Positions 1,118-2,536 of a stretch of DNA of 4,742 nucleotides are shown here, piece by piece. The notes under the pieces were generated by a model that made no database searches, was not told where the DNA came from, and worked only from the letters and a program-made list of their open reading frames with translations. Position numbers and translations under genes: made by a program. The first letter of the stretch is position 1; the number at the start of each line of letters is the position of its first letter. The DNA is from a virus (lineage: Duplodnaviria > Heunggongvirae > Uroviricota > Caudoviricetes): IMG/VR virus record IMGVR_UViG_2740892258_000009; one strand, written 5' to 3'.

Positions 1118-1244
1118 TAATTGAAAGTTAAATGTTTTTGCTGATTTACTATGCTGTAAACTGAAAATATCGCACGAAGTTGGAGTAGGTATTGAGCATA
1201 GTGAATTATGAGGAGGGAGTTTTTTATGAGATTAATCAGGGAGA

Positions 1245-1276
1245 AAGAAGAGTAAAGCCCGGTTATGCGGCCGGGC
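1245..1276 (-). terminator. Probable intrinsic terminator of the repressor / ParA-like operon
   Basis: GC stem GCCCGG (1257-1262) / CCGGGC (1271-1276) with an 8-nt loop, 7 nt after the TAA stop (1286-1284). On the minus strand it is followed by UUUACUCUUCUUUCUC. The U tract is interrupted. Confidence 0.5.
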
Positions 1277-1283
1277 ACATGCA

Positions 1284-2360
1284 TTACTTTGTAAGTTCTA
1301 GAACTCGTTGAGCCAGCCCTTTAAATTGTTCGTTAAAGGCGTCTCTGCTTGATTTCATTGTATTTAAGGCATGCCCAAATTGCCCTGAATCGCGAATTTG
1401 CTGATCACTGATGGAGAAAACAGGTGTCGCTAGTTGTTGGCTTATTGCGATTAATGAGTTGAAATCGGAAATATGCGCAAGATCATAGGCTGATAAATCT
1501 CCACTGACTGTTGTTTTGTTAATTGCATGTTGCACTTTATCTCGTGGAATTATGCAGGTAATTTTTTCTAGATTTGGCACTAAGATCGAATCAACAGCAT
1601 CACGGATAGCTGCCATCCATTTTTCGAAAGATTTTACAGGTGCTCCTTTACGCGGCCTGTATCTCTGCTGAATCATACCTAGAAACTGCGGTGCATTTTT
1701 AATTGATTGTGAAGAGTTACCATCATTATTTTCTTTAAATAATGCTAATTCTTTGTGCCAGCGAGGTATATTTTTTGAGAGAGAGCGAATTGCTTGCCAG
1801 CAAAAAAAGTCTGGAGCTACAGGTACGATAAAATAGTCACTTGACATGAGAACTACTTCATTTAAACCTCCAACATTAGGGCTGAGATCATAAAGAATGT
1901 AATCAATATTATTCTTCATGGCGATTAGCTGTAATATTTTTGGCAGGTTCCCTGGTATATTTCTTGTAGCAGGAATACCAGCAGCAATTTTTAGAGAAAC
2001 ACTTATCTGTGAATCTAAGTCCGAAACATCTAAATGTCCGGGAAGAAGCAGAAGGTTTTCATGCAGTGTAGGGTGTAATTTTCCCGTTTCTTTTTCAAGG
2101 TATGCTTCAGGTTGTCCGCCATTAATCAAATATTCTACAATAGGTCCAAGAGTTAAGTTATCTCTGCTAGAATAAAAAGAATCTAAACCCTCATCAATCT
2201 TTTCATAGCCAAGAACCATTCCTGTTAGATTACATTGCGAATCAAGGTCAACCATCAATACTTTCTTGCCTTCATCCGCAAGTGCCCATCCAAGATTGAA
2301 GGTTGTTGTGGTTTTACTTACCCCACCTTTATGATTAAAAAAACAAATTGATTTTGTCAT
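1284..2360 (-). CDS. Orphan ParA/MinD-family P-loop ATPase (deviant Walker A), 358 aa
   Basis: Track ORF 1284..2360. The N-terminus MTKSICFFNHKGGVSKTTTTFNLG carries the KGGxxKT deviant Walker A with the signature lysine. VLMVDLDSQCNLT resembles the A'/switch motif and DYILYDLSPNVG resembles Walker B. AAGGA lies 9 nt upstream of the ATG. There is no N-terminal HTH extension, no recognisable effector domain and no adjacent ParB-like ORF. The gene is visibly more AT-rich than the genes on the replication side. Confidence 0.9.
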   Translation of the reverse strand: MTKSICFFNHKGGVSKTTTTFNLGWALADEGKKVLMVDLDSQCNLTGMVLGYEKIDEGLDSFYSSRDNLTLGPIVEYLINGGQPEAYLEKETGKLHPTLHENLLLLPGHLDVSDLDSQISVSLKIAAGIPATRNIPGNLPKILQLIAMKNNIDYILYDLSPNVGGLNEVVLMSSDYFIVPVAPDFFCWQAIRSLSKNIPRWHKELALFKENNDGNSSQSIKNAPQFLGMIQQRYRPRKGAPVKSFEKWMAAIRDAVDSILVPNLEKITCIIPRDKVQHAINKTTVSGDLSAYDLAHISDFNSLIAISQQLATPVFSISDQQIRDSGQFGHALNTMKSSRDAFNEQFKGLAQRVLELTK

Positions 2361-2413
2361 ATTTCTCTATCCTTTCGACCCCCAGCATATTGTAATTTAC
2401 GCTGGGTGATTAT

Positions 2414-2442
2414 TTTATATTGTTAATGATAATGTTTAATAA
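2414..2442 (-). promoter_or_regulatory. Candidate dedicated promoter for the ParA-like gene
   Basis: The minus strand has TTATTA (2442-2437), a 17-nt spacer, then TATAAA (2419-2414). The predicted transcript would begin with the stem CCCAGC/GCTGGG (2406-2401 / 2386-2381) ahead of the SD. The region is very AT-rich, so this call is weak. Confidence 0.25.
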
Positions 2443-2503
2443 AAATAAGAGAGTAAAACAACTATTAGTAATAGCACTTGCTTGATAAATATTATTTTTT
2501 CAC

Positions 2504-2536
2504 CTTTAGTTCTATAGTCTAAACGAAGAACTAAAG
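2504..2536 (-). other. 10-bp stem-loop spanning the repressor stop codon
   Basis: CTTTAGTTCT (2504-2513) and AGAACTAAAG (2527-2536) with a 13-nt loop. The TAG stop (2533-2531) lies in one arm. No U tract follows on the minus strand, so it is not a canonical terminator. Confidence 0.4.

Follow-up and report, generated by a model that had tools for sequence, protein, structure and literature searches.

The ParA-like gene and its place in the immunity region

The current study deals with a 4,742-nucleotide (nt) stretch of DNA from the IMG/VR virus record IMGVR_UViG_2740892258_000009 (Caudoviricetes), here called the window, and with one gene in it that encodes a ParA/MinD-class ATPase of 358 amino acids (aa). 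It represents the immunity region of an integrated lambdoid prophage and shares 99.9% identity with a prophage that carries an integrase and is inserted at tRNA-Arg in Escherichia coli IHE3034, APEC O18, and about 100 other complete genomes. Judged from sequence comparison, the gene is probably a divergent sister of GiPD474 and a lysogen-expressed single-gene anti-phage cassette. The open reading frame (ORF) was defined by translation, Pfam and PHROG matches, and an AlphaFold2 (AF2) model, and the operators were located by motif counts; the region is composed as follows.

384-899, plus strand: gene for a 171-aa protein of PHROG 1244 (unknown function)
1050-1062: OL-type operator, perfect palindrome CTACTTAAAGTAG, left border of the immunity region
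1276-1257, minus strand: intrinsic-terminator-like hairpin GCCCGG-N8-CCGGGC with a T-rich tail, 8 nt past the ATPase stop codon
1284-2360, minus strand: ORF of the stand-alone ParA/MinD-class ATPase, 358 aa, of the "long" 3PG5-like type
2361-2530, minus strand: AT-rich 170-nt spacer from the cI stop to the ATPase start
about 2381-2406: short hairpin in the 5' leader of the ATPase gene
2438-2433 (-35) and 2414-2409 (-10): weak sigma-70-like site in the spacer, overlapping a TATAAAATAA motif
2531-3292, minus strand: cI-like repressor with HTH_3 and Peptidase_S24 (RefSeq start at window position 3235)
3274-3286 and 3297-3309: two OR-type operator copies between cI and cro
3342-3605, plus strand: cro-like regulator, divergent from cI
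right of the cro-like gene: cII/YmfL-like gene, then DUF4222, then an O-like replication gene

The ATPase gene has the same orientation as the repressor gene and follows it at a distance of 170 nt, as had been stated in the first-pass annotation of this DNA. The operator motif CTAYTTWAAGTAG gave 6 strand hits in the window versus 0.4 expected, a number that was reached in 0 of 200 shuffles, and no second OL copy was found when up to 2 mismatches were allowed. Because operator copies are present both at 1050-1062 and between cI and cro, the ATPase gene lies inside the immunity region, between cI and OL like rexAB of phage lambda. This rexAB-like geometry had already been proposed, together with a GC hairpin at 1257-1276 and an OL-like palindrome beyond it; all three hold, and the palindrome is itself a copy of the operator motif. 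The AT richness that had been ascribed to the gene was likewise recovered, with a GC content of 0.36 to 0.39 across the ATPase gene versus 0.47 to 0.52 at 3450-4650.

Neither the segment at 900-1283 nor the spacer at 2361-2530 contains an ORF of >55 aa, no terminator was found in the spacer between cI and the ATPase gene, and the vicinity of the gene has no iterated repeat arrays, only the operator palindrome and short hairpins. A promoter of the ATPase cassette is predicted at 2409-2438, and the cassette looks as if it owned both a promoter-like site and a terminator. The enterobacterial homologs share a TATAAAATAA-type motif that precedes the start by about 35 nt, and a GC-rich inverted repeat directly past the stop was seen by inspection in most of the homologs examined. 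The combination of a promoter-like site, one gene, and a terminator is the architecture of a moron. Directly to the right of the OL operator (region 1064-1110), a further palindrome, CAACAACAAA-N9-TTTGTTGTTG, is located at 1070-1098; candidate functions are a second regulatory site, a nut/boxB-like element, and termination of the leftward transcript.

Sequence motifs and predicted structure of the ATPase

The diagnostic motifs of the window ATPase are given below.

residues 9-18: deviant Walker A motif NHKGGVSKTT, with the signature lysine K11 and with K16
residues 34-42: A' motif VLMVDLDSQ, with D38 and D40
residues 154-161: Walker B motif YILYDLSP, with D158
residues 231-237: family motif QQRYRPR
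residues 299-308: family motif DFNSLIAISQ

The 358-aa ATPase and its Walker A, A', and Walker B motifs, as read in the first-pass annotation, are confirmed by the translation, by Pfam (AAA_31, 2e-29; CbiA, 5e-14), by PHROG (164, "ParA-like partition protein," 9e-52), and by the fold of the AF2 model, which is confident (pLDDT of 82.7, pTM of 0.87). The protein thus combines KGGxxK[ST], the signature lysine, the A' and Walker B aspartates, and the ParA fold, which define the ParA/MinD deviant-Walker-A superfamily. Profile and structure searches, which had been proposed at the outset, returned a ParA/Soj-like fold; the top structural matches of the model are Soj, ParA, McdA, and the uncharacterized structure 3PG5, and the latter is also the best PDB sequence match (E value of 1e-21 over residues 3-221). 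The C-terminus is predicted as one long high-confidence helix (H329-356 of the AF2 model). In agreement with the initial reading, the protein has no effector domain and no N-terminal helix-turn-helix domain, the Walker A motif starting already at residue 9.

None of the curated NCBIfam models reached its cutoff with the window ATPase. A PADLOC 2.0 match to PDC-M28B is confined to residues 3-40, i.e., the Walker A region, and membership in PDC-M28 was rejected because the match is not full length and unrelated ParA-like proteins match in the same way.

Conservation and spread of the family

The window ATPase has >5,300 database protein matches, and the best 120 of them are 60 to 100% identical over their full length and stem from Gamma-, Beta-, Alpha-, Delta-, and Epsilonproteobacteria. 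In an alignment of 30 members, the mean column identity is 67%, and the catalytic residues, QQRYRPR, and DFNSLIAISQ are invariant. For the survey of genomic neighborhoods, one genome per species was scanned, which resulted in 554 confirmed loci, and the best 80 were analyzed. The window gene belongs to a tight clade with at least about 50% identity, mainly from Proteobacteria, which is designated clade A; relatives outside this clade share 38 to 46% identity and are found in Firmicutes, Cyanobacteria, Chloroflexi, Acidobacteria, and others. Weak homologs are present on plasmids.

With respect to E. coli, the gene was detected in 109 of 5,426 complete genomes; every copy shares at least 99% identity with the others, and 111 of its 111 places are chromosomal. 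The RefSeq name "ParA family protein" is the sole annotation there for both the window gene and the GiPD474 ortholog, and some sources label homologs as BcsQ-like. IS1A insertions in or beside the region of the ParA-like gene were observed in E. coli ECE228 (H157) and SM107 (H159); they may be inactivating events, which would point to a fitness cost of the gene. A 30%-identical full-length homolog, "Orf317, similar to Soj," is located at the regulatory end of a Pf1-type inovirus prophage (L003 6079-7032), and since this is a filamentous Pseudomonas prophage, the ParA-like family is also carried by inoviruses.

GiPD474 and the exchange of cassettes at one site

In Salmonella Typhimurium 4/74, the immunity region of Gifsy-1 contains gipd474 (STM474_RS13505), a single gene of 1,086 nt for an AAA_31, ParA/MinD/Soj-like ATPase (Bosma, Noireaux & Bowden, Applied and Environmental Microbiology [AEM], November 2025; PMC12724215). 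Resistance to Felix O1 (FO1) requires this gene and is conferred by it alone; in Salmonella and E. coli K-12, it protects by about 5 logs against T4, FO1, and Alf5, and T7, SP6, S16, Jbel, and VpaE1 are not affected (PMC12724215). In E. coli K-12 with gipd474, the plating of T4 and Alf5 was reduced by about 5 logs; the gene is expressed at >500 transcripts per million in exponential growth, and a post-adsorption action has been suggested but is unconfirmed (PMC12724215).

The first-pass annotation had stated that no ParA-fold ATPase was recognized as a described single-gene prophage defense determinant. This statement is out of date in view of GiPD474 in 2025 (PMC12724215), remAIN in 2024, and the ATPase-containing gene dyads of PMC3710099. 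The accompanying proposal of a lysogen-expressed exclusion or defense moron therefore loses its novelty, while it gains comparative evidence from the repressor adjacency, the lack of ParB, and the exchange with gipd474. Literature searches for ParA in lambdoid superinfection exclusion and for an anti-phage role of ParA-like ATPases found nothing; the GiPD474 paper surfaced via the Pfam name.

With the primers of PMC12724215 as probes, gipd474 was retrieved from IMG/VR (L116:5723-6808); its 361-aa product has GGVGKT at residues 29-34, matching the publication. An ortholog in the Gifsy slot of Salmonella (P0121/P0010, at about 2.77 Mb, with 73% identity to the window ATPase) was rejected as GiPD474, since none of the published primers match. 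The window ATPase and GiPD474 are 22% identical in BLASTP (1e-13), and hhalign aligned them with 98.3% and an E value of 2.5e-14 over 298 columns that include the C-terminal half. The motifs Q-x-R-x-R and D-x-N-[ST]-L-x-A-I, which lie outside the canonical ParA boxes, are common to both proteins, and the best PDB sequence match of GiPD474 is likewise 3PG5. Homologs of GiPD474 were defined by at least 70% identity and at least 70% coverage (PMC12724215), a range from which the window ATPase falls out at 22% identity; at the profile level, the homology spans the full length.

The window-type gene and gipd474 are alternative cargo of one site in Salmonella and E. coli. In Salmonella, the locus with gipd474 (L116) and a locus with a 73%-identical ortholog of the window gene (L086) have flanks that are 91 to 97% identical, and only the cassette differs. 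In E. coli STEC17-183, the cI-cro-ymfL block (window positions 2529-3641) is 93% identical at the nucleotide level and has the same operators, including both cI-cro copies at 3274-3286 and 3297-3309; the homology to the window stops at the cI stop codon, beyond which follows a GiPD474 ortholog with 93% aa identity to GiPD474 and 23% to the window ATPase. A GiPD474 ortholog is present in 71 of the 5,426 complete E. coli genomes, and 96 E. coli genomes have an allele of the window cI with about 91% identity and lack the window gene.

Genomic neighborhoods of the homologs

In at least six phage lineages, the E. coli prophage among them, the gene directly follows a repressor gene, and these repressors are unrelated. 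Its settings are listed below.

Salmonella Gifsy-like prophages, Klebsiella, the P22-like phages ST160/SE1, Morganella, Pseudomonas: order repressor, ATPase, early-left genes
Acinetobacter, Chromobacterium: arc/ant regions
Serratia: between Q and holin
Aeromonas: P4-like satellite
Mannheimia: ICE-like element (ICE, integrative and conjugative element)

Clade A is thus a promiscuous single-gene cassette. No ParBc protein or other recurrent partner of clade A was found among 82 and 97 neighbor proteins of the 80 homologous loci, and neither ParB nor a centromere occurs beside the gene in any locus inspected or among the recurrent neighbor families. The plasmid-borne relatives inspected are situated in accessory regions (umuDC/Abi, a P22-like prophage, PRTRC) with no annotated ParB. 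The absence of a ParB-like partner ORF, which had been noted from the window, is borne out, as no ORF of >55 aa flanks the gene; a consistent pairing of homologs with ParB or centromere loci, proposed as the sign of a plain partition function, did not appear, and the adjacency to a repressor is what recurs.

Three kinds of neighbors were considered as partners and rejected. Small convergent ORFs past the gene in Salmonella and Klebsiella (68 and 67 aa) are mutually nonhomologous and were found nowhere else, the 171-aa neighbor occurs in 650 and the ATPase in 109 of the 5,426 E. coli genomes, and the same-strand downstream genes in clade A are housekeeping genes (aroK, polyprenyl synthase, uvrA). 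A DUF3024 gene lies between the repressor and the ATPase in ST160 (L002 5521-5862) and in Morganella (L005 9418-9759), and its 113-aa product corresponds to the PADLOC single-gene candidate PDC-S43 (2e-41); the presence of both genes in two unrelated prophages suggests a stacking of defense candidates in the slot.

HEPN-coupled sister clades

Clustering of the neighboring ORFs of the 80 loci by blastp revealed exactly two recurrent partners, both only in distant clades. A gene for a protein of about 200 aa accompanies the ATPase gene in 15/80 loci, 0 to 11 nt downstream of it in 13/15 and at 79 and 198 nt in the others; 13 proteins adjoining sister-clade ATPases match HEPN_RiboL-PSP in Pfam. 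The second partner, of about 311 aa, is encoded 0 to 25 nt downstream of the ATPase in 4/80 loci (L043, L044, L062, and L071). It has no Pfam match and a C-terminal LRNDAIH (Rx4H) motif; this partner of a ParA-like ATPase is probably a HEPN-like effector that has not been described before. A homolog from a Burkholderia pseudomallei plasmid groups with this clade.

In a neighbor-joining (NJ) tree, the HEPN-coupled clades are placed on branches separate from clade A; no HEPN or other conserved partner is found beside any clade A member, and none in the window. A computational study of 2013 described ParA/Soj-HEPN gene dyads and predicted that they are toxin-antitoxin systems in which the ATPase controls the HEPN toxin (Anantharaman et al., PMC3710099).

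Proposed function and alternative explanations

On sequence grounds, we lean toward the view that the gene is a self-contained accessory cassette, expressed in the lysogen, whose most likely role is the protection of the lysogen and its prophage against other phages. The window ATPase would then be a ParA/MinD-type switch in which ATP binding closes a sandwich dimer via the signature lysine K11. The dimer would bind a conserved cellular scaffold, presumably a nucleic acid and most likely nucleoid or phage DNA, via the Arg-rich strand QQRYRPR; a phage-specific factor might engage or lock the switch after DNA entry, and phage development would be blocked without a dedicated nuclease domain. This proposal builds on the paradigm of the ParA/MinD proteins, on the basic strand that is invariant in the family, and on the suggestion that GiPD474 acts after adsorption. 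A specific phage trigger is assumed because of the strain-level specificity of GiPD474, which acts on T4 but not on S16 and Jbel, and on FO1 and Alf5 but not on VpaE1, and the other contact may be a conserved cellular component, since the window family evolves unusually slowly.

Several observations weigh against a defense function. The identity to GiPD474 is only 22%, and the function may therefore differ. An identity of 60 to 70% across proteobacterial classes is atypical of arms-race proteins; such slow evolution points to the binding of a conserved host component and thus fits nondefense roles as well. Many clade A members are found alone between housekeeping genes and not in defense islands, PADLOC 2.0 recognizes just the Walker A region of the protein, and topology is the basis on which DNA binding, as well as the role of QQRYRPR, is postulated. 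A bolder and rather doubtful extension would be that >5,000 sequences across phyla represent slowly evolving, effector-less, ParA-type immune switches, with HEPN as the effector in sister clades. The ParA dimer itself would be the weapon, e.g., by coating or immobilizing the DNA of phage or host after a phage factor has locked the ATP state. If this were true, positioning ATPases would be a general, overlooked chassis of bacterial immunity, for which an unexplained solved structure (3PG5) is at hand.

The ATPase might alternatively serve in prophage competition or RNase control, either as the sensor or antitoxin-like regulator of an RNase encoded elsewhere (a HEPN of host or prophage, or another nuclease) or by moderating the induction of its own or a co-resident prophage in the manner of remAIN, and would then not act by itself on incoming phages. 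Such a role appears unlikely to us, even though sister clades are hard-wired to HEPN_RiboL-PSP (15/80 loci) or to the Rx4H protein (4/80), the control of a HEPN toxin by the ATPase was predicted by Anantharaman et al. (PMC3710099), and remAIN is needed for the activation of RtcR, whose signal is taken to be probably cleaved tRNA, and raises Gifsy titers 2- to 4-fold when deleted (PMC9879122). The clade A members lack any adjoining HEPN or conserved partner, the HEPN-coupled clades branch apart, the 171-aa neighbor is distributed independently (650 genomes versus 109), and GiPD474, as the closer full-length relative, acts alone in a heterologous host. We give even less credit to a lysogenic conversion in which the protein positions or regulates a host machine like MinD, FlhG, BcsQ, or MipZ, i.e., in division, motility, cellulose synthesis, or the envelope, with an indirect effect on phages. 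Orphan ParA/MinD ATPases commonly have such tasks, a universally conserved host target would fit the very high conservation between taxa and the lack of a partner transferred along with the gene, and the BcsQ-like labels point in this direction; however, these labels are generic and no NCBIfam cutoff is reached, no MinD-like membrane-targeting helix was seen at the C-terminus (by eye, with no dedicated test), the gene swaps with a proven defense gene at one site, and it has spread on phages, satellites, and ICEs.

That the cassette hitch-hikes as a selfish or neutral element, or acts as an addiction-type gene, and benefits neither host nor phage is conceivable in view of the single-gene copies between housekeeping genes in many genomes and of IS1 in two E. 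coli copies. It is nevertheless very improbable, given the strong purifying selection over the full length, the intact catalytic motifs in 30/30 aligned members, and the near identity (at least 99%) of all 109 E. coli copies. The names "ParA-like partition protein" in PHROG and "ParA family protein" in RefSeq, together with the weak plasmid homologs, would suggest an ordinary partition or maintenance ParA that stabilizes an extrachromosomal form of the phage, which is the least credible of the explanations. The prophage is integrated, with its integrase at tRNA-Arg, and all E. coli copies are chromosomal; ParB and centromere repeats are missing here and at the homologous loci, and the plasmid relatives are without annotated ParB. 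In terms of ParABS, the window gene has no ParB-type neighbor, no parS repeats, and no extrachromosomal replicon, and a plain partition function is practically excluded because of the missing ParB and repeats, the integrated prophage, and the chromosomal copies.

As defense genes, the ParA-like ATPases encoded in the immunity regions of prophages have emerged only recently, with remAIN in 2024 and GiPD474 in 2025. The concept of a ParA-fold single-gene prophage defense and the logic of the slot are already published; new is the divergent lineage of the window, which is not in PADLOC 2.0. One hotspot in E. coli and Salmonella is occupied alternatively by members of at least two "long ParA" lineages that have diverged deeply. 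Compared with the GiPD474 lineage, the window lineage is larger and more conserved, and it has HEPN-coupled sister clades and a solved, unannotated structural relative. It provides a second orthogonal protein for comparison with GiPD474 and a natural allelic series for the mapping of triggers. A common gene is thereby flagged as a likely source of phage resistance in extraintestinal and avian pathogenic E. coli (ExPEC/APEC) strains such as IHE3034 and APEC O18.

Further observations in the window

The best Pfam match of the cro-like protein (3342-3605) is YdaS_toxin (2e-11), a family that also labels the gene in the cro position of ATPase-bearing Salmonella and Klebsiella prophages. In ymfL (3839-4074), the window lacks 207 nt that are present in IHE3034 and in each of the other complete E. 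coli genomes found, and it contains a perfect 56-nt tandem duplication (3963-4018 = 4019-4074). The frame is truncated or rearranged (about 132 aa versus 185) because of this loss and duplication, which could represent a defective prophage variant or an assembly artifact. The O-like replication gene contains, at 4672-4742, a TCAAAATCTGACGCA-like 15-nt unit in four copies arranged head to tail, which are probably origin iterons. The 171-aa protein (384-899) has a coiled coil and a CxxC...CxxC zinc ribbon; its gene has its own terminator (938-957), lies between OL and the early-left genes yfdP-yfdT, is opposed to the presumed PL transcript, and may be another moron.

Comparison with known systems

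Soj, ParA, MinD, and McdA share with the window ATPase the fold, the deviant Walker A motif with the signature lysine, and the catalytic aspartates. The window ATPase is, however, about 100 aa longer, with insertions at about residues 47-100 and 205-225 and a distinct C-terminal half, and it has no gene for a ParB- or MinE-type partner. A profile alignment with Soj, for which a manually entered sequence was used, covers only the first 200 or so residues and ends at about residue 202. The attempt to map the DNA-binding arginine R189 of Soj by profile was abandoned, as this region was not reached, and because of this early end the correspondence of R237 with R189 is suggested by topology. Closer in size is 3PG5 (DIP2308 of Corynebacterium diphtheriae, from structural genomics), which belongs to the same 361-aa length class and matches with a Foldseek probability of 1.0, but its identity to the window ATPase is about 21 to 24%, and it has no functional annotation.

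The exclusion genes lambda RexAB, P22 SieB, and BstA are expressed in lysogens and located in or near the immunity region, comparable to the position of the window gene between repressor and OL. They have no relation in sequence or fold to the window ATPase; RexAB is a membrane/sensor pair and BstA a KilA-N protein. The dyad ATPases of PMC3710099 are members of the same family (38 to 46% identity) and have the same length as the window ATPase, whereas the window gene and the whole clade with >50% identity are without a HEPN neighbor.

The remAIN element (STM14_3218-3220; Sargen & Helaine 2024) is a Gifsy-1 competition and defense element whose first gene is ParA-like, as it is presented in PMC12724215. 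It is not induced by mitomycin C (PMC9879122, PMC12724215), and it failed to restrict FO1 in strain LT2, for which the AEM authors suggest a need for host-specific cofactors (PMC12724215). We recovered it from IMG/VR (L119); RemA has 279 aa, belongs to AAA_31, and is without ParB. Both systems occupy the same repressor-adjoining slot, are expressed or, in the case of the window, predicted to be expressed in the lysogen, and have a ParA-like protein that lacks ParB. In contrast to the single gene of the window, remAIN consists of three genes (RemA-RemI-RemN), and RemA aligns with the window family only over the N-terminal 200 or so residues, i.e., the ATPase core. The third gene of remAIN (L119 361-1023, minus strand; STM14_3220, 220 aa) encodes RSMIEH, an Rx4H motif as in HEPN RNases, which would fit the RtcR (tRNA fragment) phenotype; an assignment of RemN to HEPN was rejected, as it has no Pfam HEPN match at an E value of ≤1 despite this motif.

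GiPD474 differs from the window ATPase in its Walker A motif (KGGVGKT versus KGGVSKT in the window) and in its A' motif (DACPQ versus DLDSQ), and the window family is far more conserved and taxonomically wider. In other respects the two correspond closely. Both are proteins of about 360 aa with an AAA_31 fold, encoded by one gene directly downstream of and co-oriented with a prophage repressor; they can be aligned over their full length with shared extra motifs, and 3PG5 is the closest PDB sequence for both. Like gipd474, the window gene is situated in the immunity region by repressor, cro, and cII and has no co-conserved partner.

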